From IMG/VR virus record IMGVR_UViG_3300045988_156843: a stretch of DNA of 64,000 bases, one strand, 5' to 3'. The notes beneath the pieces were generated by a model. It saw only the letters and a program-made list of their open reading frames with translations. It was not told where the DNA came from and did no database searches. The DNA comes from a virus. Shown in pieces: positions 11,798-25,546 of this stretch (its first letter is position 1; each line of letters opens with the position of its first letter). Both the position numbers and the translations under genes were made by a program.

Positions 11798-13744
11798 ATG
11801 GAAATAATCAAAGACATAGCAGCTACGCAAGAAGTTGAATGGGGCACTCTAGCAGATGCAATTGATAGGAATTTCAATGAAGCATCTACAGGAATTCAAA
11901 CAGTTGCTCAGAAGGTGGATCTTCTTGACATGGCTTCTCCAAACTATTGTGTGGGAGAATGGCAAAATGGAGAATTAAGTCCTACATCAGTTAATACGAT
12001 TGGTGATACAAGTATACTTGACAAATGGGATTTCTATCTAATAGATACTACAGACAATACAGGTGAGACTAATCATCCTGTAGGAAAATTGAAAAGAAAC
12101 AATCTTCTTCGATTTGTAGACGGTAGTTTTGCTCCTGTTATTGGAATCACAGAAGCTATGAGAGCCGAATGTGATGTTGAACTGTATTTAGATAATACCC
12201 AAACAAATAAATACTGTGATGCAGGGGCATTTGATGCAGAAGCATTCTATAATCAATATGGGATGACGCAGAAACTCTACAATGCGACAGGTGAAGAAGT
12301 TCGTATTTTACGACCTTATGAGACCACTGAAACTAAATATACAATAGGTTTAGGAAGAGCAGATAAGATTTATCTATTAGATAACGTTGTCGGAAAAAGT
12401 GGGAAAAGATGGAAAGGGATATTTGCAAGTCCGACAACATGGGATGGAATAGATACAACTCTTTGGGGGCTTGATCCGACTGCCATATCTCCTTGTCCTG
12501 TATGCACTATTGGCAATAAGACACGTTCTTTCTTTTATGTATATGAAGGTGAATCTAATTGTAAATCTTCAAATGGTATAAATAATCGTTGTACGATGTT
12601 TAGTAACGGAAGAACATATCCAAGAGTTAATGATATGAATCAAGTCAACGACATGACGTGGAGTCGTGCAAATAATGCAGATCCCGATGCACCTTATCCT
12701 TTTGCAGAAGGAGGATATCATGCGTTGAATACTTTCATCAATTGTTTGGAAATTCGTTATGGAACTAAATATCTACACAAGGAATCATTATTTTCCGGTG
12801 GTATTTGTTCTAATGATTCTGTAAGCGAAGCAGGATGGACAAAGACGGGAGGCATTCGTTACAAAAAGACGGCAGATAGCACATGGAAATACGCTAATTG
12901 GAATACGACTCCATCGGATATGTTCTATAATGCTAGTGGGGGTAAGACTAATATGAATGAATTCCTAAGTAATTATTGTCCTAAAGAACAATGTATGGAG
13001 AGTCAAATGGCAGCATCGTTTGCCGTTGAGACTGGAGTGCAGGAAGGTGAAGAATTTGAATTCTATGGAGCTACCTATTATTACCGCAATATAGTGGATA
13101 CAAAAGGATTAGCTGATGGAGAAATGAATGTAAAGGTATATAAGAAGATGTCTCAAACATTTAATGCATATGACGAGTTGGGTGCAGAAACATCTTTTGA
13201 TGTAGAAGTAATCTTGCGTATGGCTTTATATGCAGGTGCTAATTTATCCGGTGATGTATTTGCTTACTGCGGAGGAGGATATGAACAGGTTGGAACATGT
13301 GTGAATGCTGCTTCAGCATCTGTTAACAATCCAGTTGATATTTATTTGGAACCGGATCAAAAAAAATGGTTGAAAGAAACAAGTGTAACTAAAACCAATC
13401 TTGGTACTTTTGATTTTGAAAAATCCTATATGAAATTAGGCAGTAGTACAAACTTGGGAGATAGTTACGCAAAAGAGCGAGAAAATTATGCTGCATGGAA
13501 GACTGCAAAAGGCGGTAGTCTGTCAACTGGAGAATGTTATTATGCTTGGGATAACAATTATTGGAGTAGTACAGCTATGCAGCGTGTTAGAATTGCGGCT
13601 CGGTTTCGTGGTCATGCTTATTCTGCTGTTTGCTCGCCTCGTAATTTGTATGCGCATTACGCTGCTTCTAATGCGACTCGTAACATTGCCGGGTTTGCCC
13701 AAGTTAGGATATCAGTAAACGCAGTTCCGATGCAATCGGAATAA
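11798..13744 (+). CDS. DGR target protein (tail fibre / receptor-binding candidate) with C-terminal variable region
   Basis: 648 aa. The last ~50 codons are the VR copy of the TR, and the C-terminus ...CSPRN...GFAQV is consistent with CLec-fold DGR targets. Confidence 0.85.
   Translation: MEIIKDIAATQEVEWGTLADAIDRNFNEASTGIQTVAQKVDLLDMASPNYCVGEWQNGELSPTSVNTIGDTSILDKWDFYLIDTTDNTGETNHPVGKLKRNNLLRFVDGSFAPVIGITEAMRAECDVELYLDNTQTNKYCDAGAFDAEAFYNQYGMTQKLYNATGEEVRILRPYETTETKYTIGLGRADKIYLLDNVVGKSGKRWKGIFASPTTWDGIDTTLWGLDPTAISPCPVCTIGNKTRSFFYVYEGESNCKSSNGINNRCTMFSNGRTYPRVNDMNQVNDMTWSRANNADPDAPYPFAEGGYHALNTFINCLEIRYGTKYLHKESLFSGGICSNDSVSEAGWTKTGGIRYKKTADSTWKYANWNTTPSDMFYNASGGKTNMNEFLSNYCPKEQCMESQMAASFAVETGVQEGEEFEFYGATYYYRNIVDTKGLADGEMNVKVYKKMSQTFNAYDELGAETSFDVEVILRMALYAGANLSGDVFAYCGGGYEQVGTCVNAASASVNNPVDIYLEPDQKKWLKETSVTKTNLGTFDFEKSYMKLGSSTNLGDSYAKERENYAAWKTAKGGSLSTGECYYAWDNNYWSSTAMQRVRIAARFRGHAYSAVCSPRNLYAHYAASNATRNIAGFAQVRISVNAVPMQSE
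13593..13705 (+). repeat. DGR variable repeat (VR)
   Basis: Aligns to 13848-13960 at a constant offset of 255. There are 12 mismatches in 13593-13703, all at TR adenines, plus 2 A->T at the 3' edge. Confidence 0.9.
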
Positions 13745-13760
13745 AGGGGATGCAATCCCT
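13725..13760 (+). promoter_or_regulatory. twin hairpins just 3' of VR (ttccgat-gca-atcggaa; gggat-gca-atccc)
   Basis: Two adjacent stem-loops share the core gatgcaatc and straddle the stop codon at 13742-13744. They are absent after the TR. Confidence 0.5.
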
Positions 13761-13847
13761 GCAAATCCTATAGACATCTGATAAGTTATGCAATGGGACA
13801 TAACCTCTAAAACAGATTGGATAGGTTGAAATAATGGATAAAGAGTT

Positions 13848-13960
13848 TTGCGGCTCGGTTTCGTGGTAATGCTAATAATGCTAATTGCTCGCCTCGTAAT
13901 TTGAATGCGAATAACGCTGCTTCTAATACGAATCGTAACAATGCCGGGTTTGCCCAAGAA
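13848..13960 (+). repeat. DGR template repeat (TR)
   Basis: Non-coding copy of the VR with 12 AAY codons when read in the VR frame, located 145 nt upstream of the RT ATG. Confidence 0.9.
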
Positions 13961-14104
13961 GGTTCTTTTATTATCGTCAAACTCTTTATTCGTGTCTTGG
14001 AACGACAAATTATTATAAGACAATGTACTTGTGGATACATTTTGTATTTGAGAAGTACGGTAGTGGAAATAAACATTACCTTTTATGCCCAACTTGCTAT
14101 AAAA

Positions 14105-15478
14105 ATGAAAAATAGAATAGTTGACATATTTGATAATATTACAGAAAAGGATGTAAATCTTGCGATTGATCGTGCTATTCATAAACATATGAATAAAAGA
14201 GAAGTCATATCCTTTTTAGACAACAGACCGTCTAATTGCAAACAATTATATTCCGCATTAAAAGATGGATCATACATTAATATATTATCATATAAATATT
14301 TAGAAAAGACAAATAAAAATGGTAAAGACAGGGACATCAGTAGTCCAACATTAGAAACTAGGATATACCAACATTTACTATTAAATTTGTTAGAACCTAC
14401 ATATTATCAGAAAGACAATAATTATGGTTTAAATTGCAAAAAGAAATCCGGTATAACTGCAACTGATAAAAAAAGATCTGTTGTACATAAGATGAAAAAT
14501 ATCTTTTATGATCGATTGGATTTAAGTTATTGTTTAGTGATAGATCAAAGGAAGTGCTACGAACATATTAAGGAGAAATATTTCAGGAAAGCTATAAAGA
14601 AAATAGTTGCTGATAAAAAACTGATAGATTTTGCCGTAAATATATGTTTTGTAAATAATAAACTTCCGATTGGAACGCCAACTTCACCATTTGCTCATCA
14701 TATCTTGATGTTATCTTTTGATTATTTTGCAAAGAGTTTAACAAAAGAATGTGTAAGATACGCTGATGATAACTTTTTAGCTTTTCATACTAAAGAGGAA
14801 GCTCAACAGGCTAAATGGAGAATCAAGAACTTTTGGTGGTATGAATTAGGGATGCGTGCTAAAAGACATACAGTTAAAATACAGCCATTATCTATTCCTT
14901 TAGATTTTTGTGGCTATAAGTATTATAGAAATAACAATTCAAAAACTTCTCATAATAAAGGATATACAAAAATTAGAAAAAGAGTAGCTGACGATGCCAA
15001 ACGCTGCAATAATGATAGAAGTTGGGGATCTTACTTCGGATTATTAAAACATGCAGACACATGGTCATTAATGCGCAAAATAGAAAATAAAATGAGACTT
15101 ACGGAACTTACTAACAAGATCAAGATTGATCGCAAAATGGATGCTAAGAATATCCTTCCTAAAGAATTACTAGGCGAGGTTATATCCATTTATGAATATG
15201 AGATTAGATATGATTCTAAAGGCAATGCCAATTGGATTAAATGTTTAATTGGTATGGATGAAAAGGATGAAGATGGAGAATCTACTGGGAGAACAATCGC
15301 AAGAGAATTTCATGGAAACTTTCAAGGGATCATACAATATATTATCTTGTGCGAAAAGGCTTTTGGAAAGAAACAATTATTACCTTTGGAAGATGTTGAG
15401 ATTGAGAATCAATGTGGATACATATTCAAAGGAAGTACTAATCAATTAGAATATATAAGTAAAGATGAGAACAATTAA
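14105..15478 (+). CDS. DGR reverse transcriptase with C-terminal extension
   Basis: Motifs VIDQRKCYEHI (A), LPIGTPTSP (B), YADD (C) and FCGYKY (E). The track ORF start at 13901 merely translates the TR; the first plausible ATG is at 14105, giving 457 aa. Confidence 0.9.
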   Translation: MKNRIVDIFDNITEKDVNLAIDRAIHKHMNKREVISFLDNRPSNCKQLYSALKDGSYINILSYKYLEKTNKNGKDRDISSPTLETRIYQHLLLNLLEPTYYQKDNNYGLNCKKKSGITATDKKRSVVHKMKNIFYDRLDLSYCLVIDQRKCYEHIKEKYFRKAIKKIVADKKLIDFAVNICFVNNKLPIGTPTSPFAHHILMLSFDYFAKSLTKECVRYADDNFLAFHTKEEAQQAKWRIKNFWWYELGMRAKRHTVKIQPLSIPLDFCGYKYYRNNNSKTSHNKGYTKIRKRVADDAKRCNNDRSWGSYFGLLKHADTWSLMRKIENKMRLTELTNKIKIDRKMDAKNILPKELLGEVISIYEYEIRYDSKGNANWIKCLIGMDEKDEDGESTGRTIAREFHGNFQGIIQYIILCEKAFGKKQLLPLEDVEIENQCGYIFKGSTNQLEYISKDENN

Positions 15479-15866
15479 TTATGTAGCTATTCCGGCTTTT
15501 GAATCGGAAGATATTAATAGAGATAAAACTGAATGGAAAAACGGTCAGTGTATTTCTATAGACGAAGGGAATTTTGTGACTTTATACATTGGTCATCATA
15601 CTGAAGAAACGATAACTCTTGAGAATGGTTCTGAATATACTCCCATGAAAGCATTTCCTATTAGAGTCATGAAACCAGTAAACAGGGATATGGCTATTAA
15701 CGCAGCAGAGATGGAAGCTTATTGCCTTAATTCTGCAATGGAAGTAGCTAGCTTTTCTGCTTCAATGGCTCGGAAACATCGTGAGAATCCAAAAGATCAG
15801 GAAGTAAAAGAGCATGATGCATTTATATCTTGGGTGAAAGAAGAATTAACAAAAATAGGATATTAA
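15465..15866 (+). CDS. hypothetical protein translationally coupled to RT (possible DGR accessory)
   Basis: 133-aa ORF overlapping the RT 3' end by 14 nt, with a helical C-terminal half. No Avd signature recognised. Confidence 0.5.
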   Translation: MRTINYVAIPAFESEDINRDKTEWKNGQCISIDEGNFVTLYIGHHTEETITLENGSEYTPMKAFPIRVMKPVNRDMAINAAEMEAYCLNSAMEVASFSASMARKHRENPKDQEVKEHDAFISWVKEELTKIGY

Positions 15867-16750: not shown

Positions 16751-19700
16751 ATGGTCGAAAAACTCTCAATATTTTCATTGGGACAGGACGGTAGCAAAAC
16801 TCCTTTCCCTAACAATGGAGCACAAGCTGTAATAGCTGACTACCAATTTGTATCCGGGAGAATGGGTTCAATTAGCCTTTCGGCTACTTTAATGTATCCT
16901 CGTTGTCTTGATAATGAATGGGATGAGACACAGTTTGTTGAATTTAGGGGAGAAAAATATTATATCTTCACCACTCCTTCTTCTTCCAAATCCAATACCG
17001 ATTTAAGATGGAAGCATGACCTTGTATTTACTTCAGAAAGAATTCAGCTTGACAATACATATTTTTATGATGCGGTATCATCTGATGCTGCCAATATAGA
17101 TCAATACGTTAGTAATAGCACTAAGTTCACATTTTATGGTGATATAAATGAGTTTGCTAAACGTATGAACTATTCTTTAAAATATTCAGGTCTAAAATAT
17201 TCCATTGTTGTAGATGAAGGAATTAGCTCAGAAGGTAAACTGATGACTTTTGAAGATAAGTTTTTCAGTGAAGTCTTACAGCTAGTTTTTGAAACATATG
17301 AATTACCATATTATTTTGCAGGCAGAGTAATACATATTGGATTTTCCAGTAATGCGATAACTCAGACATTTAAATATGGGCATGACAACCAACTCCTTTC
17401 AATCACTAAGACAAACGCTAATTATCGTATAATTAATAGATGTACGGGTGTTGGTAGTGATGAGAATATTCCATATTACTATCCGAATGATAATCCAAAA
17501 GGAGATATAGGCGTACAAGCTGATGCAAATAATACTGCAATTAAACAAGCGGACATTCGGATTTCTGACAAAGATTTGTTTGCAGAGAAGGTAAATATAA
17601 ACGAGACTATAGAATATCGTGAAGGTGAAGCCGCAAATGCATATAGCTATAATTTGTGGTCTGACACTGGAATGCAGTATCAATATACTCTTAAGAATCA
17701 AGTAGAAATCCCACGTGTTGAAGTAATAAATACTGTTCCAAAAACAGGAGTATGGAAGGGGACTATCCGGATGCGATTAAAAATGTATCGTGAAGGAAAG
17801 ATGAGAGTGGGAATTCAGCCATTAATGAGACGGGTTTGGAAGAATGCAAATCCCCCTACCAAAGATTGGCAACCCGAAGGTCTTGAAATGAAATTTTCAG
17901 ATGCGGAAAACAACAACCTGACTTATACAAAGTTAAATACATGGGATTATAGTTTAGGTGATCTTGCAATAGGAGAATATAATTTAGATTTTATATTTCC
18001 ATTCCAAACCAATGAGTTTATAGACTATTATAAAGTCTATGCTGTCATTAAAGCAATCAGCATTGGATATGATGGCAAATATTGGTTTTTAAATAATGCG
18101 GTAGTATCTCTTCCTGCTATTGGTATTAGTATTACTAAAACTCCTGCTGTGGGAGATAAGTTTAAGCAAATTGAATTAAAGACAGATTATATTCCATATG
18201 CTCAGAATCTGATGCCTCCTATCTATAGAGAGAGCAAGGGATTGCAGCACTTTTACAATGCTAAGAATAATACATATAAGATTCCCGGTACAAATGAATA
18301 TTATACGTTTGAAAACGAATATACTGAAGGGAATCCTAAAGAAATAATTGTAAAATTTGAAAATATTAAACCTTCAATTAAGGGAGTTAGGAATGCTGCC
18401 GGACAATTGATTGGAGAGATTGCGGCTATTGCATTTGACGATGAGGATAATGACGAATTAGATAAAAAAACAAATGCATATCTACATCCATATTTCTATG
18501 TAAAATTAAGGAAGACAGATGGTACATATGGATTCAATCTATTCGAGCAAGGTATTTCAAGCGGTGAGATGACTCTTTCCATGACAAGTGGTAAATGTGC
18601 TGCTTGTAATTTCATAGTAGAAGTAAAAGAGGAAGGTGAAGGTGAAAAAGCAATATTTCAGAATCCAGTACAAGTTGATAGCAATGGAAATATTGTTCCC
18701 GGTAACGCTGCAGAGAAAATTAACAAAAAAAATATTCAGGAAAGACAGCAGAATACTAGGACAAATGAAGTTTGGTTAGCTTTAAAAAAAGATGATTCGA
18801 CTTTCAATATAGTTATGCCTAATGAAACGAATAACTATAAGCCGGAAGCCGGAGACTCTTTTGTTATTCTAAATATTAAGCTACCACAAGCATATATATT
18901 AAGCGCAGAGAACGATCTGAAAGAAGAGATCATTCGATATATGGCTCAGAACAATAGCGAAAAATTTAATTTCTCAATAACATTTAGCCGTATATATTTA
19001 GAAAATCATCCGGATATTCTTGCTCAATTAAATGAGAATGCTCGTTTGCAAATTGAATATAATTCTCAAAAGTATGAATTATATGTATCTAATTATACAT
19101 ACAAAGTTTCCAATAATGAGATATTGCCGGAAATTACTGTTGAGCTTTCAGATACGATTACAATACGAAAGGGAACATTACAAAAATCTATTTCCGCAGT
19201 CCAACAAAGTCTATTAAGCACTATCGGTTCTATTGACTTTCTGAAAATGGGATTAAAATACTTTCTTCGTAAAGATGTGCCTGATACTGCATTAGAACAT
19301 ATTACATTTAATGATGGCATTCTTGTAAGAGGTAAAAATGCCATTATTGAAGAATCAGCCAATGTTATATATGAGGAAGACGGTAATGCTATCTATGAGG
19401 AATATTCAGAACCTATAATGCCTATAGCTGAGGCTAATACATTAGGATCTCTTGATAATGTAGATGCTATTGTTGATGGGACTGTAAACGATAAAGTTCT
19501 TCTTGTTAAGAATCCCGGAAGTACGCAGTGGACTCAGGAAAAAATGTCCATCAATGTGGATAGTATTATCTATATATCTACACAGACATTATTGGATAGT
19601 ACTAGAACGACAGATTTAACTTTGAGCGCAGAAGATCATCAGGCAATTATCAAACTCTATGGAGATAAAAATGTATCCAAAAATACAGTTGTTTATAGAG

Positions 19701-20572
19701 GGAAAGAGAAACTAGGAAATCAGTATTTGGTAGCTCTTTCAATGTATGCCAATTTTTCTATCATTCCTGCATCTGAAGAAGGTGTCATGGATGTAGCTTA
19801 TGTAAATCCGTCAGACGGTTTTCTTTATGCATTTAAAATTAAAACAAATGAAAATCGCAGTATTGCTACCGTTCCGGAAAAGAAATCAAGTGGAGGAGAA
19901 ATTATCATTGATAGTGCTCTTTCTACAGAATCAGAAAATCCGGTAATGAATAAGATCATAACTCAATATATTAATGAGCTTATGGATGCTGTATTCCAAA
20001 TAAGTATGACTTCTTTTAGTGGAGGAGGCACTTATGAAATCGGAAGCAGTACAAAACCTGTATTGAGTTGGGTTATTAAAAGAAAAGGAGAAGAGGTTAA
20101 TCCTACCAATGCAACTGTGAACGGTAACAAGGAAGGTGTAGCGGCTAATTTTAAGTCTTATACATCTCCGGTTGAAATTACATCTAATAAATCATATACT
20201 GTAATAGCATATTATAATTCTCAATCAGTGACTAGATCGGCATCATATTCATTTCTCAGTAAAAAGTATTTTGGAGTTTCTCCAAATACGACTTTGACAA
20301 ATGATGAAATATTAGCATTAAGCGGATGGGCATGGGCTAATAGTAGAACTATGAGCGAGTCCCTATTTGATTGCACAGGGGGTCGTTATCCATATTATGT
20401 AATTCCTGCAAGCATTTATTCAGGACTTGAAGTATGGGTAGGTCAGTTTAGAAATACAGACATAGTTGTTACTGATCAAAATGTAGTCAATGCACAAGGT
20501 TATACGGTAGCTTACAAAGTTGTGAGATTAAATACTATACAGTACGGTAAATTATACATATCATTCAAATAA
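16751..20572 (+). CDS. very large tail/baseplate-associated protein
   Basis: 1273 aa. It shares a FLRKD...ITFN.GI...WTQE module and one DSALST.S.NP..NK.IT motif with the downstream fibre. Confidence 0.6.
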   Translation: MVEKLSIFSLGQDGSKTPFPNNGAQAVIADYQFVSGRMGSISLSATLMYPRCLDNEWDETQFVEFRGEKYYIFTTPSSSKSNTDLRWKHDLVFTSERIQLDNTYFYDAVSSDAANIDQYVSNSTKFTFYGDINEFAKRMNYSLKYSGLKYSIVVDEGISSEGKLMTFEDKFFSEVLQLVFETYELPYYFAGRVIHIGFSSNAITQTFKYGHDNQLLSITKTNANYRIINRCTGVGSDENIPYYYPNDNPKGDIGVQADANNTAIKQADIRISDKDLFAEKVNINETIEYREGEAANAYSYNLWSDTGMQYQYTLKNQVEIPRVEVINTVPKTGVWKGTIRMRLKMYREGKMRVGIQPLMRRVWKNANPPTKDWQPEGLEMKFSDAENNNLTYTKLNTWDYSLGDLAIGEYNLDFIFPFQTNEFIDYYKVYAVIKAISIGYDGKYWFLNNAVVSLPAIGISITKTPAVGDKFKQIELKTDYIPYAQNLMPPIYRESKGLQHFYNAKNNTYKIPGTNEYYTFENEYTEGNPKEIIVKFENIKPSIKGVRNAAGQLIGEIAAIAFDDEDNDELDKKTNAYLHPYFYVKLRKTDGTYGFNLFEQGISSGEMTLSMTSGKCAACNFIVEVKEEGEGEKAIFQNPVQVDSNGNIVPGNAAEKINKKNIQERQQNTRTNEVWLALKKDDSTFNIVMPNETNNYKPEAGDSFVILNIKLPQAYILSAENDLKEEIIRYMAQNNSEKFNFSITFSRIYLENHPDILAQLNENARLQIEYNSQKYELYVSNYTYKVSNNEILPEITVELSDTITIRKGTLQKSISAVQQSLLSTIGSIDFLKMGLKYFLRKDVPDTALEHITFNDGILVRGKNAIIEESANVIYEEDGNAIYEEYSEPIMPIAEANTLGSLDNVDAIVDGTVNDKVLLVKNPGSTQWTQEKMSINVDSIIYISTQTLLDSTRTTDLTLSAEDHQAIIKLYGDKNVSKNTVVYRGKEKLGNQYLVALSMYANFSIIPASEEGVMDVAYVNPSDGFLYAFKIKTNENRSIATVPEKKSSGGEIIIDSALSTESENPVMNKIITQYINELMDAVFQISMTSFSGGGTYEIGSSTKPVLSWVIKRKGEEVNPTNATVNGNKEGVAANFKSYTSPVEITSNKSYTVIAYYNSQSVTRSASYSFLSKKYFGVSPNTTLTNDEILALSGWAWANSRTMSESLFDCTGGRYPYYVIPASIYSGLEVWVGQFRNTDIVVTDQNVVNAQGYTVAYKVVRLNTIQYGKLYISFK

Positions 20573-20578
20573 ACAGTC

Positions 20579-23500
20579 ATGGCAGATATACCCGGAACCA
20601 ATGTCGCCTCCATGATAACTCCGTTTACAACGCAGGATATCATCGCTACACATAGTGAAACATATGGACAAGGAGGCTATAGAAGTGAGAAAACAGTTGC
20701 AGATATGAACGCAATTATTGCGTCCCGTAGAAAAGAAGGTATGATTGTTCATGTCTTAGATGAAGACAAGGATTATATCTTAAAGGACGGTAAATTTGTT
20801 GTGAAGACAAGTGAGGTCATTGTCGATTCAGCATTGAGCACTACTTCTCTTAATCCCGTTCAAAATAAAGTAATTACCAATGCTTTAGATTCCAAACAAA
20901 ACTCTTTGGTTAGCGGAACTAGCATAAAGACCATTAATAGTGTATCTTTGTTAGGTTCCGGCAATATAAATATACCTGTTATAACAGTAGATAGTGCAAC
21001 AAGTTCTACATCTACAAATCCTCTACAAAATAGGGTTATAACAGCTTCCATTACTGATATAAATACTAAATTAACGCCAATATCTACAGCATGGAACAAG
21101 AAAAATACAGCTAATGGTTTTCTTGTATTGGATACAGCAGGATTAGTTCCTAGCAGTAATCTTCCTTCCTATGTCGATGATGTATTGGATGTGTATGCTA
21201 CATATGATCAATCAGCAACTGGAACTATATCAAATGTTAAATTATATACAGATTCATCTAAAACGATTGCAGTAGTTCCGGAAACAGGAAAGATATACAT
21301 TGATGTTTCATCCGGCAAACCTCCATATCAATTCAGATGGTCAGGTACAGCATATGTTACATTGAATACCGGAGGACTTATTATTGGTACTATATCCGGT
21401 ACAGCATTTGATGGTGGAAAAGGACAAGAATTATATTCTGAATATGCAGGAAGCCGAAAAACTATTTATCAAAGAGCATATTCCTTCTTCAATGCCATTA
21501 CTCCTGCTTCAGATAAATTCATGCAAAATATATCAGCATCTTATACTGCCACTGCCATATCACTGACTAAAGCATATAAGAACTTTGCAGGGACATCATC
21601 ATCAGAATCATTAACTATAAATGCTGCTACTACAAGTAATGCAGGAGTAATGTCTGCAGCAGATAAAACTAAGTTAGATTCATATCAAGCCTCAACAGGA
21701 GCTACTCCGAATTCAATTGCCAAGAGAGATGAGAATGGAGACCTTACAATGCGGTATCCAATTACTAATGCCGGAGTAGATAATAGCTCATCTATTGATT
21801 ATGTCGTATATATAAGCAATTCTGCTACAAAGTTTATGAGACATTGTTCATTGTCTCATTTTACCGATGTAATGCGATTGGTTACAACAACAAGTAGAGG
21901 ATTAATGTCTCCGGCTGACAAAAAGAAACTGGAAGATATTGATACAGAGAAATTCCTTCGAAAAGATATTGATGATATAGCAAATGGAAATATTACTTTC
22001 AATAATGGTATTTATGTGAAAGGTTCATATGCTAACCTTCAATCAATTTTTGAACAAGGAGGAAATTCTATCCTTGAACAAGGAGAAAACGGGATTATAG
22101 AAACAGCAGAGACACAAGCAGCACCAACTGATATTACATTAGCTGATTTAGCTAATGTTGATGGCACAGTTAACGAACCTGCATACAAGAGGATGATTTT
22201 AACTAAACTTGCCGGAGCTACGACATGGACACAAGAATACATTGATCCTCTTATTGAAATTACAGAAGCTCCTAGCAATAATTTATATTATGCTAGAAGA
22301 AATAAAGCATGGGTTAATTTTACTCCTTTTTCCGGTAATTATTCAGATTTATCGGGAAAACCGACTATTCCTACTAAATTAGCAAATCCATATGCATTAA
22401 CCTTTTCCGGAGCAGTAACTGCAACATATGACGGATCAGGCGCAGTCAATGTAAATATACCTGTCGGTGGAGGAGGTGGTGGCGGAAGCGTTATCGTAGA
22501 TAGCTCTCTTAGTACAACTTCGGTAAATCCTGTACAGAATAGGGTTATAACAAATGCTATTAATAATGCCAATAGTAGCATACAAACCAATGCTGATAAT
22601 ATTGAAGCGATAATGGCTATTATCGCCAATATACCATCTATAAGTATAGATACTGCATTGAGCACAACAAGTACCAATGCTGTTCAGAATAAGGTGATAA
22701 CTGCCGCCTTAAATTCCAAACAGAATACACTTGTGTCAGGTACTAATATTAAAACGATTAACAGTCAAAGTATTGTAGGATCAGGAAATGTCAATCTCAC
22801 TTATTCTTTTTCTCAGATAACTTCTAAACCAACTACCTTATCGGGATATGGAATTTCGGATGCATATACAATGACGCAAGTAAACAATGCCTTTGTATCT
22901 TTAAGCGGAAATGTAATTAGAACATCAGGGAAGCTATCAATGGCAGCAGACGTATTTGCAGATGATGGCTCCACAGGTGGTCTTGATATGAGAAATTCGA
23001 ATATTGTAGGTGTAAATGGTATATATTTTAAAGATGCATCAGATAGTGACGGTGAATATATCAATTTTTACAGAGATTCTACTCATGTTGATTCTTTATA
23101 TGCATTAAATGGAGAATTACGATTTAAACCTAATAGAGTATTAGGTGCTATAACGACTGCATCAAATATAATTCTTCATACGGGGAATTATACATCATAT
23201 GTACCTACAAAAACAGGGACGGGAGCAACAGGGACTTGGGCAATAAGCATTACAGGAACAGCCGAGTTATCTAAAGCTACAAATTTAATCAATGGATCAT
23301 ATACAGGAAGTGGAGGAAAACAACCGCCATCTTATATACCATCAGGGAAGATTAGATTTAACATGATGAATACTGTTGTTGGTACTGACTCTAACTATAA
23401 GGATTTCATATTAATGGACAGTTATACTGGTAATGATGTTCCTTATGTTACTGCAATTGGAGTAAGAAAAACTTCAACTCCTGAAGCATATATAATGTCA

Positions 23501-25546
23501 GGTGCAAAAGGCAATACAACAGAAGCTAATTGGGTTAAGACTACTTTATTAAGTGCTCTTAACTACAATAACTATGCACCATCTAAAACCGGATTAGGTG
23601 CTAGTGGCACATGGAATATTAATGTATCAGGATCAGCAGCCTCAGTTGCATGGGTAAATGTTTCCAATAAACCTAATTTTGCAGCAGTTGCAACTTCCGG
23701 TTCATATAATGACTTAACTAATAAACCTACAATTACAAATATAACAGTTGACTCAGCCTTATCGACTACTAGCACTAATCCATTGCAAAATAAAATTATC
23801 ACTACTGCACTAAATGGCAAGCAAGCAAATCTTGTTTCGGGAACAAATATTAAGACTGTAGGAGGACAGAGTCTACTTGGAAGTGGTAATATTGCATTTC
23901 CTACAATAACTGTTGATTCTGCTTTAAGTTCCACTTCAACGAATCCTTTGCAAAACAAGGTAATTAATAGTCAATTTGAATCTGTTACTACAGGAATGCA
24001 GTTAATTATGAATTTATACAATGAGATTAAAACAAGTGCTTTAACCTCTTCTAGTGTTGTTACGTCTATTACTACAGAAAATAGTGATAGTACATCACTA
24101 GTAACATCTGTTAAATCCGTTGTTAGCTATATAAGTGATAATTTAATTGATCCTATAACTCCTATACTTACGGCTTATCTAACTCAAAATACCAAAAATG
24201 GTATGTTGATTTTGGATTCAAATGGTAAAGTTCCTAGCAATTTATTGCCGGGCACATTGTTAACATTAGGAACAACATCTACTACGGCTTTTAGAGGTGA
24301 TTATGGTAACATCTTATTTACTAACTTTGGATCGGGAACAAATCTAACAGGTACTCAGCGTGCTAGAAACTTCTTTGGAAAAATTGATGTTTCTAATTTA
24401 CATTTCTTATCAGGTGGTTATACTTGGACACAAACAGATTCAGAAATAGAAATAGAATTTGAACAATATAATTTTACTGGTACTAAAAGTACATCCTCTC
24501 CTTTGATTAATTTCCCAATAGCTACAACAGCGAAAGCCGGACTACTTGGAGGAGATCAATGCTCTTATTTAGTTTCTCTTAATACCGAATACAATAATAT
24601 AGCAAATAAAGCAAATTATATAAAGGCTAGAAAGTTTTTTGGTAGCATAAATACCTCTACTGAATATTATTTAACTTCAGCTATAACTTTAAGTACTGAT
24701 GCAAATGTGATCGATATTGAGTTTCCTAAACATAATTTTGATGGAAGCAATGAAGAATATGAATATATCACTCTTCCTGCTGTTACATTAAATAACGCAG
24801 GAATATTAACATCTACCCAATTTACTAATTTATCAAATAAACAGGAGAAATTAGTTTCCGGCACAAGTATCAAAACCATCAATGGGCAATCATTATTGGG
24901 AAGTGGTAATATTAATATTTCAGGTGGGGGATTGAACTCATATACAACTACTCTTGATATTTTTAATATATCAAATGGTCGAACTATTACTTCTACAGAA
25001 TTTGCAGAAGTAGGAAGAATTGTGACGGCTGTAAGAGAAGGAAAACAAATATTATATAACTATCAGGTGGCTGAATTTGGTACAGGAGTATTAAACTGCC
25101 ATTTAGCGGATGATTTAACTTGTCTATCATGGGTAGTTACAAGTTATACTGATACTGAAATATTCTATATCGATCCAACATTATCTACTGATAAATGGGC
25201 AAGAATATCATTAGTAAAATCAGATTTTTCAAATATAACTTCCAAATCCTTCGGCTCCTCATCAAGTTACTACAAGCTTCCGGATGGGTTGCTGATTCAG
25301 TGGGGGTATAGCACTAATTCAGGTATAGGCAAAGTGATATATTATCCAATATCCTTTTTTAATACTTATTACTCTGTGCATTTAACTGGAACTAGATCTG
25401 TACACAGTAATTACATATATTCTTTTGATATATATACTAAAAGTGTAAGCTCTTTCACAATGGATTCCGTTTATCAGAACGTTGATTCAGATGCCGGAGG
25501 ATTTAGCATAGCTTTTTACTGGTTTGCTATTGGTAGATGGAAGTAA
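20579..25546 (+). CDS. tail fibre protein with switchable C-terminal tip
   Basis: 1655 aa with a Gly7 linker and at least 6 copies of the VDSALSTTS.NP.QNKVIT motif. The C-terminal ~80 aa begin at the LPDGLLIQWG boundary inside inverted repeat IR-L. Confidence 0.8.
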   Translation: MADIPGTNVASMITPFTTQDIIATHSETYGQGGYRSEKTVADMNAIIASRRKEGMIVHVLDEDKDYILKDGKFVVKTSEVIVDSALSTTSLNPVQNKVITNALDSKQNSLVSGTSIKTINSVSLLGSGNINIPVITVDSATSSTSTNPLQNRVITASITDINTKLTPISTAWNKKNTANGFLVLDTAGLVPSSNLPSYVDDVLDVYATYDQSATGTISNVKLYTDSSKTIAVVPETGKIYIDVSSGKPPYQFRWSGTAYVTLNTGGLIIGTISGTAFDGGKGQELYSEYAGSRKTIYQRAYSFFNAITPASDKFMQNISASYTATAISLTKAYKNFAGTSSSESLTINAATTSNAGVMSAADKTKLDSYQASTGATPNSIAKRDENGDLTMRYPITNAGVDNSSSIDYVVYISNSATKFMRHCSLSHFTDVMRLVTTTSRGLMSPADKKKLEDIDTEKFLRKDIDDIANGNITFNNGIYVKGSYANLQSIFEQGGNSILEQGENGIIETAETQAAPTDITLADLANVDGTVNEPAYKRMILTKLAGATTWTQEYIDPLIEITEAPSNNLYYARRNKAWVNFTPFSGNYSDLSGKPTIPTKLANPYALTFSGAVTATYDGSGAVNVNIPVGGGGGGGSVIVDSSLSTTSVNPVQNRVITNAINNANSSIQTNADNIEAIMAIIANIPSISIDTALSTTSTNAVQNKVITAALNSKQNTLVSGTNIKTINSQSIVGSGNVNLTYSFSQITSKPTTLSGYGISDAYTMTQVNNAFVSLSGNVIRTSGKLSMAADVFADDGSTGGLDMRNSNIVGVNGIYFKDASDSDGEYINFYRDSTHVDSLYALNGELRFKPNRVLGAITTASNIILHTGNYTSYVPTKTGTGATGTWAISITGTAELSKATNLINGSYTGSGGKQPPSYIPSGKIRFNMMNTVVGTDSNYKDFILMDSYTGNDVPYVTAIGVRKTSTPEAYIMSGAKGNTTEANWVKTTLLSALNYNNYAPSKTGLGASGTWNINVSGSAASVAWVNVSNKPNFAAVATSGSYNDLTNKPTITNITVDSALSTTSTNPLQNKIITTALNGKQANLVSGTNIKTVGGQSLLGSGNIAFPTITVDSALSSTSTNPLQNKVINSQFESVTTGMQLIMNLYNEIKTSALTSSSVVTSITTENSDSTSLVTSVKSVVSYISDNLIDPITPILTAYLTQNTKNGMLILDSNGKVPSNLLPGTLLTLGTTSTTAFRGDYGNILFTNFGSGTNLTGTQRARNFFGKIDVSNLHFLSGGYTWTQTDSEIEIEFEQYNFTGTKSTSSPLINFPIATTAKAGLLGGDQCSYLVSLNTEYNNIANKANYIKARKFFGSINTSTEYYLTSAITLSTDANVIDIEFPKHNFDGSNEEYEYITLPAVTLNNAGILTSTQFTNLSNKQEKLVSGTSIKTINGQSLLGSGNINISGGGLNSYTTTLDIFNISNGRTITSTEFAEVGRIVTAVREGKQILYNYQVAEFGTGVLNCHLADDLTCLSWVVTSYTDTEIFYIDPTLSTDKWARISLVKSDFSNITSKSFGSSSSYYKLPDGLLIQWGYSTNSGIGKVIYYPISFFNTYYSVHLTGTRSVHSNYIYSFDIYTKSVSSFTMDSVYQNVDSDAGGFSIAFYWFAIGRWK
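25235..25306 (+). repeat. IR-L of candidate invertible segment
   Basis: Perfect 72-bp reverse complement of 25790-25861, checked base by base. Encodes ...ITSKSFGSSSSYYKLPDGLLIQWG. Confidence 0.95.

Follow-up and report, generated by a model that had tools for sequence, protein, structure and literature searches.

A recently active diversity-generating retroelement with a GxxxSP reverse transcriptase and no Avd in a tailed phage of Bacteroidales

We analysed a 64,000-nt stretch of viral DNA (IMG/VR record IMGVR_UViG_3300045988_156843, hereafter the window) and found that it carries a diversity-generating retroelement (DGR). The locus consists of a target gene whose 3' end holds the variable repeat (VR), a template repeat (TR) followed by a structured spacer, and a reverse transcriptase (RT) gene (Table 1). 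No open reading frame (ORF) lies between VR and TR, where the gap of 103 nt is too short to hold a gene. With the order target-VR, TR-spacer RNA and RT, and without the accessory protein Avd, this is very probably a functional DGR; its carrier is a tailed phage of ~83 kb with Bacteroidales as hosts. The element belongs to a known DGR sub-lineage, first described in 2024, with a GxxxSP RT and no Avd. The first-pass annotation of this DNA had proposed a complete DGR at 11798-15478; the cassette itself stands, but the right limit cuts into a conserved ORF at 15465-15866.

Table 1. Positions of the DGR features and the adjoining ORF in the window
Feature	Positions	Strand	Description
Target gene, 648 aa	11798..13744	+	Likely receptor-binding/tail-fibre-type protein; VR at its 3' end
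Variable repeat (VR)	13593..13703	+	Codons 599-636 of the 648-codon target; from repeat search
IMH-like, GC-rich, invariant VR 3' end GCCGGGTTTGCCCAAG, 16 nt	13688..13703	+	Identical to TR 13943-13958
VR-flank hairpin 1, TTCCGAT-GCA-ATCGGAA	13725..13741	+	7-bp stem, GCA triloop; overlaps the last target codons
VR-flank hairpin 2, GGGAT-GCA-ATCCC	13747..13759	+	5-bp stem, GCA triloop
Candidate pairing segment	13778..13804	+	~55 nt upstream of TR; putative pairing with the spacer 3' motif
Template repeat (TR)	13848..13958	+	27 adenines; 12 AAY codons in the VR frame; non-coding
Hairpin P1	13993..14007	+	4-bp stem; conserved 7-nt loop TTGGAAC (consensus YNGGARY)
Single-stranded spacer motif TATAAGACAA	14014..14023	+	(Near-)invariant columns in a 12-genome alignment
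Hairpin P2	14025..14058	+	Long, variable; 6-bp covarying base stem
Hairpin P3	14059..14080	+	7-bp covarying stem
Spacer 3' motif GCCCAACTTGC	14087..14097	+	Consensus GCCCRRCUUG; 4-7 nt after P3
Reverse transcriptase, 457 aa	14105..15478	+	Pfam RVT_1, 1.6e-11; YADD at residues 219-222
Clade-specific RT C-terminal domain, ~130 aa	15077..15475	+	Residues 325-457; conserved in all relatives
ORF133, 133 aa, acidic (isoelectric point 5.1)	15465..15866	+	Overlaps the RT stop codon by 14 nt

A repeat search of the region returned VR and TR as a direct repeat of 111 nt with 89% identity, at the constant offset of 255 nt that had been described before. The accompanying claim that the two copies differ only at TR adenines also holds. 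Compared base by base, VR and TR show 12 mismatches, and 12/12 of them are at TR adenines (hypergeometric P=4.4e-9); 12/27 TR adenines are changed in VR, compared with 0/84 of the TR C, G and T positions. As the first-pass annotation had counted, 9/12 AAY codons are altered and now read H, Y, S, V, Y, H, Y, T and I, and we found that a tenth codon, Thr ACG at 13673, has become Ala GCG. The placement of the adenines in 12 AAY codons allows about 10^14 variants of the target C-terminus and creates no stop codons. Two further A-to-T changes at the 3' edge had been counted as mutagenesis. Positions 13704/13705, however, are TT on the VR side and AA on the TR side in all 11 related genomes; since the pair never changes, we read it from these alignments as the fixed boundary where the VR flank (initiation of mutagenic homing, IMH) and the TR flank (IMH*) part, not as a product of mutagenesis. 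The frame through TR is open in the window from 13835 into the RT ORF. The same frame is closed in 5/8 relatives, and the RT homologues align from MKNR... at 14105; TR is therefore not coding, in agreement with the earlier description. That position, 145 nt past the TR when counted from 13960, is the start of the RT ORF with the YADD motif, also as described.

The activity of the element is recorded in its closest relatives. A scan of IMG/VR yielded 11 contigs of up to 84 kb with an RT 98-100% identical to that of the window, and we aligned the 3.7-kb cassette of the window with those of ten contigs that are 97.0-99.8% identical to it outside VR (11 genomes). Each of the ten bears a different VR. 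In this set, the proportion of variable sites is highest in VR, at 28.8%; the target outside VR has 8.5%, TR 5.4%, the spacer 4.1% and RT 2.0%. The varying VR sites number 32/111, of which 24 are TR adenines, while 6/111 TR sites vary. The closest genome (L001) is 99.8% identical to the window outside VR, and 14 of its 21 cassette differences fall in the 111-nt VR. When each VR was compared with the TR of its own genome, 136/143 mismatches were at TR adenines, the fixed AA/TT boundary pair being excluded. It had been predicted that polymorphism would be confined to the TR-adenine sites of VR and that TR would be invariant; the former is supported by these between-genome contigs, while TR is near-constant rather than invariant. 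TR occurs in four or five variants, and each reappears in the VR of the same genome (G>A at 13880 and A>T at 13883 are examples), which is direct evidence of information flow from TR to VR. The adenines 13701/13702, inside the GC-rich end, are invariant in every genome, as would be expected if the cDNA starts or integrates upstream of both; 25 TR-adenine positions lie between 13613 and 13686. Among six full-length public target proteins, likewise, residues 600-633 contain 20 variable positions and residues 1-598 contain 7.

The element is a real and recently active DGR. The adenine pattern, the hypervariation of VR, the flow from TR to VR and the intact RT together bear out the original proposal of a complete DGR acting on the target C-terminus. 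In one further near-identical contig, L011 (IMGVR_UViG_3300045988_161124), we noticed a 2-nt deletion within VR at two TR adenines. It would frameshift the last ~15 target codons and may reflect either misassembly of a heterogeneous VR or a defective variant.

We considered whether the locus is a decayed, inactive DGR in which the VR/TR differences are fossils of former activity. Decay is known in this clade: L131 and L132 (IMG/VR relatives of L012) have lost TR and/or most of RT, L131 lacking TR and RT residues 1-380 and L132 having a truncated TR and an internally deleted RT, while both keep VR, two GCA-loop hairpins and an ORF133 homologue. Fragmented RTs have been reported in many epsilon crAss-like phages (PMC11054128), and the deletion in L011 would also be in keeping with decay. 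In the window, however, nothing has been lost from TR, the spacer structure, the IMH-like end or the hairpins, and the full-length RT protein is 100% identical to the RT of six other contigs, all of which have different VRs. With the 14 VR sites that separate it from L001 added, decay is very unlikely.

The same pattern extends over distant relatives. A profile built from four RTs retrieved 80 viral loci, of which 69 were analysed; with bacterial genomes and other records, the loci came from three sources overall. A VR/TR pair lies upstream of RT in 62/69 viral loci, with 813/865 mismatches at TR adenines. Ten loci from bacterial genomes all belong to Bacteroidales (Bacteroides, Phocaeicola, Parabacteroides, Mediterranea, Caecibacteroides, Odoribacter, Porphyromonadaceae and Paludibacteraceae), and the adenine pattern was seen in those with enough upstream DNA (8 loci). 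In a prophage within a 606-kb contig of Bacteroides sp. ET336, where an integrase is present, 17/17 mismatches are at TR adenines. We pooled 69 distinct VR/TR pairs (the window, L001-L010 and L039-L107) and found that 50% of the TR-A positions differ, compared with 0.9% of the non-A positions; TR adenines account for 895/947 mismatches (A>T 406, A>C 372, A>G 117). In the GC-rich contig L013 (IMGVR_UViG_3300021255_005861; 185,666 nt), whose RT is 40% identical to that of the window, TR lies downstream of RT and, like the target, is encoded on the other strand, for which the adenine bias then holds; three GCA-loop hairpins come after its VR and the spacer motifs are as in the window.

The rare non-adenine mismatches in the pooled set (52/5713 positions) adjoin a TR adenine in 23/52 cases, compared with 29% expected (binomial P=0.012). 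In the clade of the window they are mostly T>G or G>T right beside mutated AA doublets.

VR diversity might also have arisen by phage recombination or by positive selection on point mutations, with the RT uninvolved. Diversifying selection and mosaic recombination are well known to act on the fibre tips with which phages bind receptors, and the cassette itself has apparently been exchanged between unrelated phage backbones. Yet neither process would restrict changes to the adenines of a nearby non-coding repeat to the extent seen in the pooled pairs, and neither would copy TR polymorphisms into VR. A DGR-less relative is also informative here. In L146 (IMGVR_UViG_3300045988_086121), a target homologue with 43% identity is followed by ~110 nt and then by an ORF133 homologue, and the locus contains no RT, no TR and no GCA hairpins; it looks like the cassette-free state of the locus. 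We consider an origin without the RT hardly credible.

Several points weigh against a DGR at this locus, or against its present activity. Motif 4 of the RT is LPIGTPTSP (residues 187-195), so that the DGR hallmark [I/L/V]GxxxSQ is absent and an SP is found as in group II intron RTs. The best NCBIfam match of the RT is the group II intron RT family TIGR04416, at 61 bits against a cutoff of 300. No Avd/HRDC Pfam family was detected in the 67 small ORFs of the window. The C-type-lectin fold that had been expected for the target was recovered neither by a Foldseek search of the full-length target model against PDB, which gave nothing significant, nor by a profile of 25 target homologues against PDB sequences, which gave nothing; it is unconfirmed rather than rejected. 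Finally, we infer ongoing activity in this genome from between-sample variation only. The earlier label of a canonical signature fits the adenine pattern and is too strong for the element as a whole, which has no Avd, IGxxxSP instead of IGxxxSQ, and tandem GCA triloops.

Could the RT come from another retroelement, such as a group II intron, a retron or a defence system, and lie beside a duplicated segment by chance? The SP of motif 4 is shared with group II intron and retron RTs, and weak matches to group II, retron and defence RTs were returned by NCBIfam and PADLOC. For retrons, NF038233 scored 49 bits against a cutoff of 235, and the generic RT matches of PADLOC scored <=65 bits, so the RT does not qualify as a retron or DRT enzyme. 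An Rfam match to plastid group II intron domain 5 was noted at 14137-14185 (-), with 21.7 bits against a gathering threshold of 61 (E=0.037). We regard this match, which lies inside the RT gene in antisense, as a chance one; with it and the missed TIGR04416 cutoff, the RT does not fall among group II intron RTs/maturases. All of these matches are far under their cutoffs. The best PDB match of the RT is, by contrast, the Bordetella phage DGR RT, bRT (8ub7, E=1.7e-6), with 30.6 bits compared with 23.5 for group II and 22.2 for retron-type RTs, and the RT is linked to an adenine-biased VR/TR pair in >70 loci at 40-100% identity. We therefore give next to no weight to a chance association and keep the assignment as a probable DGR RT; on its place among RT families, the PDB scores and the NCBIfam match point different ways.

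The SP motif is a property of the clade rather than of this copy. [IV]GxxxSP is found in 117/120 close RT homologues and SQ in none. In bRT, the Gln of the SQ motif (Q187) contacts the incoming deoxynucleoside triphosphate (dNTP) (bioRxiv 10.1101/2023.10.23.563531). The corresponding residue here is Pro195, and adenine specificity is kept. Since the adenine pattern is present despite the SP, SQ is a typical feature used by detection tools and not a functional requirement. The nearest GenBank relative of the cassette is that of crAssE-Sib (OR575929; Babkin et al., Viruses 2024;16:513, PMC11054128), where GxxxSP was reported as unexpected and as the cause of myDGR missing the element. A 2025 paper treats GxxxSP as peculiar to epsilon crAss-like phages (PMC12386605). 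The RT and target of the window are homologous to those of crAssE-Sib, which together with the SP motif places the element in the GxxxSP DGR clade.

The RT also differs from bRT (328 aa) in a C-terminal domain that follows the thumb and has no counterpart in bRT. In an AlphaFold2 (AF2) model computed with 30 homologues, the core of this domain has a predicted local distance difference test (pLDDT) of 85-94 and is mostly beta, with three long antiparallel strands, a helix and one more strand. No significant PDB fold match was obtained, the best being OB-folds (PriB, SSB, LEF-3) at E>=0.1 and a template-modelling score (TM) <0.3. A profile of the domain searched against 1.84 billion representative proteins found 103 clusters only; wherever the protein is full-length, the domain forms the C-terminus of an RT of ~450 aa. 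We examined the possibility that the domain is a fused Avd and rejected it, because the domain is mostly beta and not a four-helix bundle. As a hypothesis only, it might have a nucleic-acid-binding role that substitutes for Avd.

Two observations concern the annotation of the RT ORF. Gene callers often place its start at the TTG at 13901, within TR, which gives a protein of 525 aa starting MNANNAASNTNRNN... The TR-derived peptide of such calls equals the VR peptide, so RT ORFs have been drawn into the 90%-identity cluster of the target (651 members) alongside target variants; we rejected the size of this cluster as a measure of VR diversity because the miscalled RT ORFs are included. In addition, the protein P0252 (1141 aa, from an ENA contig of 20,294 nt) has the target fused in frame to the RT via the TR-encoded peptide. 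Its 255-nt VR...TR interval is collapsed, which would be either an assembly repeat-collapse or a true deletion by VR/TR recombination. As the RT frame in the window is open back to 13835, a VR/TR deletion there would yield such an in-frame fusion.

Avd is essential in the one DGR system that has been studied biochemically. DGRs without it are nevertheless a known class: about a quarter of known DGRs lack avd, Architecture A comprises 75/372 DGRs, and Lineage 3 has no avd, with 3A limited to Bacteroides and relatives (PMC5758913). The absence of Avd here is therefore not new. ORF133 and the other ORFs neighbouring the cassette have no Pfam, PHROG or NCBIfam matches. We asked whether ORF133 could be an Avd-like DGR accessory. 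A homologue of ORF133 directly follows RT in 22/29 diverse loci, compared with 0-2/29 for other neighbouring ORFs. It remains beside the target, however, both in L146, which lacks RT, and in L131/L132, where RT has decayed, and in several relatives it forms the N-terminal domain of a 257-293-aa protein with a C-terminal CBM_5_12 or DUF4376 domain. No counterpart was detectable in the crAssE-Sib group. An accessory role in the DGR is thus unsupported, since ORF133 stays with the target where RT is absent or decayed and is fused to CBM5/12 or DUF4376; most likely, it is a virion partner of the target, and TR and RT were inserted between the two genes.

The region after VR contains signals that TR lacks. 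VR and TR share the 16-nt GC-rich end and diverge from 13704/13959 onward, which corresponds to the IMH/IMH* arrangement; an equivalent 16-nt IMH/IMH* pair is annotated in OR575929. Two hairpins with a GCA triloop begin 21 and 43 nt past VR, and none comes after TR. GCA is a GNA-type DNA triloop. At the position of hairpin 1 in relatives, the stems differ and the loop is unchanged. GCA-loop hairpins with a stem of at least 5 bp occur three times on the + strand of the window, and two of the three are this VR-flank pair. In 28 distinct flanks of the clade, we found 82 GCA-loop hairpins <=130 nt after VR and 0 after TR, with 2-5 tandem copies per locus, 22 stem sequences, and the first copy starting ~20 nt past the repeat; the runner-up triloop in the VR flanks occurs 12 times. 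The density of GCA hairpins is 16.8 per kb in the VR flank compared with 0.014 per kb elsewhere in the loci. An independent set of loci from Bacteroidales genomes has the same hairpin pattern down to 47% RT identity. In BPP-1, a hairpin/cruciform just after VR is needed for retrohoming, and the hairpin of phage DGRs is described as a single GC-rich stem of 7-10 bp with a 4-nt GRNA loop, 4-34 bp from VR (PMC3240598). By analogy, the variable stems and the fixed loop seen here would match the logic of the BPP-1 element, while the loop, the stem length and the tandem layout differ. The crAssE-Sib paper makes no mention of hairpins (PMC11054128).

The spacer between TR and RT contains a structured, covarying RNA. 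Alignment with MAFFT and RNAalifold recovered only P1, which in 12 diverse spacers has covariation at one pair (UA 7, CG 3, GC 2); P2 and P3 were found by folding each sequence separately and tabulating helix positions. A conserved single-stranded motif, GAA...AUAAGACAA, comes after P1. It is followed by P2 and immediately by P3, with a stem of 6-9 bp, an architecture shared by unrelated sequences in 15/16 distinct spacers. The P2 and P3 stems contain 2-4 Watson-Crick pair types at nearly every position. Relative to dinucleotide shuffles, the minimum free energy of P2-P3 has a z of -4.6 in the window; its mean over 12 genomes is -3.4, and z<=-2 is reached in 10/12. The TR-RT spacer matches no Rfam family. 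We also looked by eye in five genomes for pairing between the P1 loop and the TR 3' end, which would resemble the Sp:TR priming duplex of BPP-1, and it was not consistently supported.

The spacer 3' motif may pair with the candidate segment upstream of TR. RNAduplex gave raw pairing energies of -14.1 kcal/mol for the window and -18 to -26 for L039, L042, L045 and L013. Such a long-range duplex would bracket TR and spacer in the way of the BPP-1 'cPRT Stop', and its pairing register in the window is uncertain. Independently of this, the motif (TATGCCCAACTT) resembles, in the same sense, the shared 3' end of VR and TR (TTTGCCCAAG), the resemblance being between 14087-14097 and 13694-13703 and 13949-13958; it recurs in L012, L014, L027 and L013.

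The target is probably a receptor-binding protein. It is 55% identical over 593 aa to the 'putative tail fiber protein/RBP' (receptor-binding protein) of crAssE-Sib, and it has no sequence match in Pfam, PHROG, NCBIfam or PDB. The AF2 model (pLDDT 74.9; predicted template-modelling score 0.77) shows a long N-terminal helix leading into a large, beta-rich globular body; for the VR residues the pLDDT is 30-40, as expected for hypervariable columns. A Foldseek search against predicted viral structures (BFVD) returned a 'Receptor binding complex' fragment (E=1e-25, TM 0.61), together with tail collar fibre proteins and a protein of the crAss-like phage cr6_1, whose genome also encodes an RT. The crAssE-Sib identity, these annotations and the position of the gene in the structural module support the earlier description of a fibre-like virion protein, which we retain at this probable strength.

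From these features, the following mechanism can be proposed. By analogy with BPP-1, the RT would bind a transcript spanning TR and the structured spacer (P1-P3) and would copy TR into cDNA faithfully at C, G and U, misincorporating opposite A. The cDNA would then replace VR at the 3' end of the target gene, with directionality provided by the shared GC-rich end (13688-13703) and by the VR-specific flank, here the two GCA-triloop hairpins. In this scheme, we infer how the cDNA is primed and by what route it integrates, what the hairpins and the RT C-terminal domain do, and that the target binds receptors. More tentatively, the clade may be a self-sufficient, Avd-independent form of DGR in which the C-terminal domain and the spacer RNA (P1-P3) replace Avd and the GCA-hairpin array, in place of a single GRNA tetraloop cruciform, marks the target, a possibility that we regard as doubtful at present. 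If it were true, the change from SQ to SP would show that adenine-specific infidelity does not need the dNTP-contacting Gln of bRT, and the element would be a minimal two-part mutagenesis module, RT plus RNA, that could offer a smaller tool for targeted mutagenesis.

The rest of the window belongs to an ordinary tailed phage. It encodes an SPP1-type portal, a major head protein, a primase-helicase and other common tailed-phage genes, and the TerL is nearest in GenBank to LoVEphage-like Bacteroides/Phocaeicola phages (29% identity). Related complete-looking contigs are 82-84 kb. With this size and this TerL, the genome is not an epsilon crAss-like host of the cassette; the carrier is a tailed phage of ~83 kb infecting Bacteroidales in the gut, with a backbone that is not crAss-like. 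Two large ORFs downstream, 16751-20572 (1273 aa) and 20579-25546 (1655 aa), have matches only to PHROGs without an assigned function; they probably encode tail or host-interaction proteins. As a weak hint at the host, an RT with 100% identity occurs in L108 (CAMDJC010000090.1), a 5.9-kb contig binned into an uncultured Odoribacter metagenome-assembled genome. A cassette with 61% identity lies in a 310-kb scaffold of the isolate Caecibacteroides pullorum AN421 (L114, NZ_JAAZTS010000002.1) and is probably part of a prophage; this relative and the Bacteroides prophage are likewise weak pointers to the host.

Gut-phage DGRs are well known, and what this locus adds is a well-documented, demonstrably active case from a sub-lineage whose SP motif hides it from standard DGR finders. 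New at the descriptive level are the RT C-terminal domain, the covarying spacer RNA, the tandem GCA-triloop signal on the VR side and the target-linked downstream ORF. These features could improve DGR detection and supply testable parts for an Avd-independent mechanism.

Among known systems, Hankyphage and other Bacteroides phage DGRs (PMC6199706, PMC8143477) are likewise found in human-gut Bacteroidales phages and diversify a tail or receptor-binding protein. Their cassettes have no detected sequence similarity to the one described here, and RT identity to other gut phage RTs is ~25%. The Avd-less Architecture A1/Lineage 3 (Wu et al. 2018, PMC5758913) is alike by description, with the order target-TR-RT and no avd. 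Lineage 3A occurs only in Bacteroides and relatives; the genome matches of the present clade all come from Bacteroidales. Wu Lineage 3a has an acidic accessory, CH1, of 160-169 aa; ORF133 is acidic and has 133 aa, and it tracks the target, not the RT.

The BPP-1 DGR (mtd-avd-TR-brt) shares adenine-specific transfer from TR to VR that alters the C-terminus of a receptor-binding protein, a TR rich in AAY codons and the GC-rich IMH-like end. It also has a DNA hairpin after VR with a varying stem and a conserved loop (PMC3240598), and a structured stem-loop spacer RNA downstream of TR with a possible template-bracketing duplex (PMC3240598; bioRxiv 10.1101/2023.10.23.563531). In contrast to the present element, BPP-1 has Avd, Gln187 in place of Pro195, and no 130-aa C-terminal RT domain. 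Its hairpin is a single 7-10 bp stem with a GRNA tetraloop, whereas here stems of 4-7 bp carry a GCA triloop in 2-5 tandem copies. An Avd-binding tetraloop stem of the BPP-1 type is not evident immediately after TR.

The closest system is that of crAssE-Sib. The order target(VR)-TR-RT is the same, with VR, IMH, TR and IMH* annotated in the record; the RT is 57% and the target 55% identical, and GxxxSP, the C-terminal domain, the VR peptide pattern, the lack of Avd and the GCA-triloop hairpins after VR are all shared. The two differ in that crAssE-Sib has a 151-kb epsilon crAss-like genome whereas the related contigs here are ~83 kb, in the VR-TR offset (464 nt compared with 255 nt), in the number of hairpins (four to five compared with two) and in ORF133, which follows RT here and has no detectable homologue in crAssE-Sib. 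The cassette has no nucleotide match among GenBank phages. Because a homologous cassette is found here on a backbone that is not crAss-like, the target-TR-RT cassette appears, from these sequence comparisons, to have moved between unrelated phage backbones, and the lineage extends past epsilon crAss-like phages to unrelated Bacteroidales phages and prophages.

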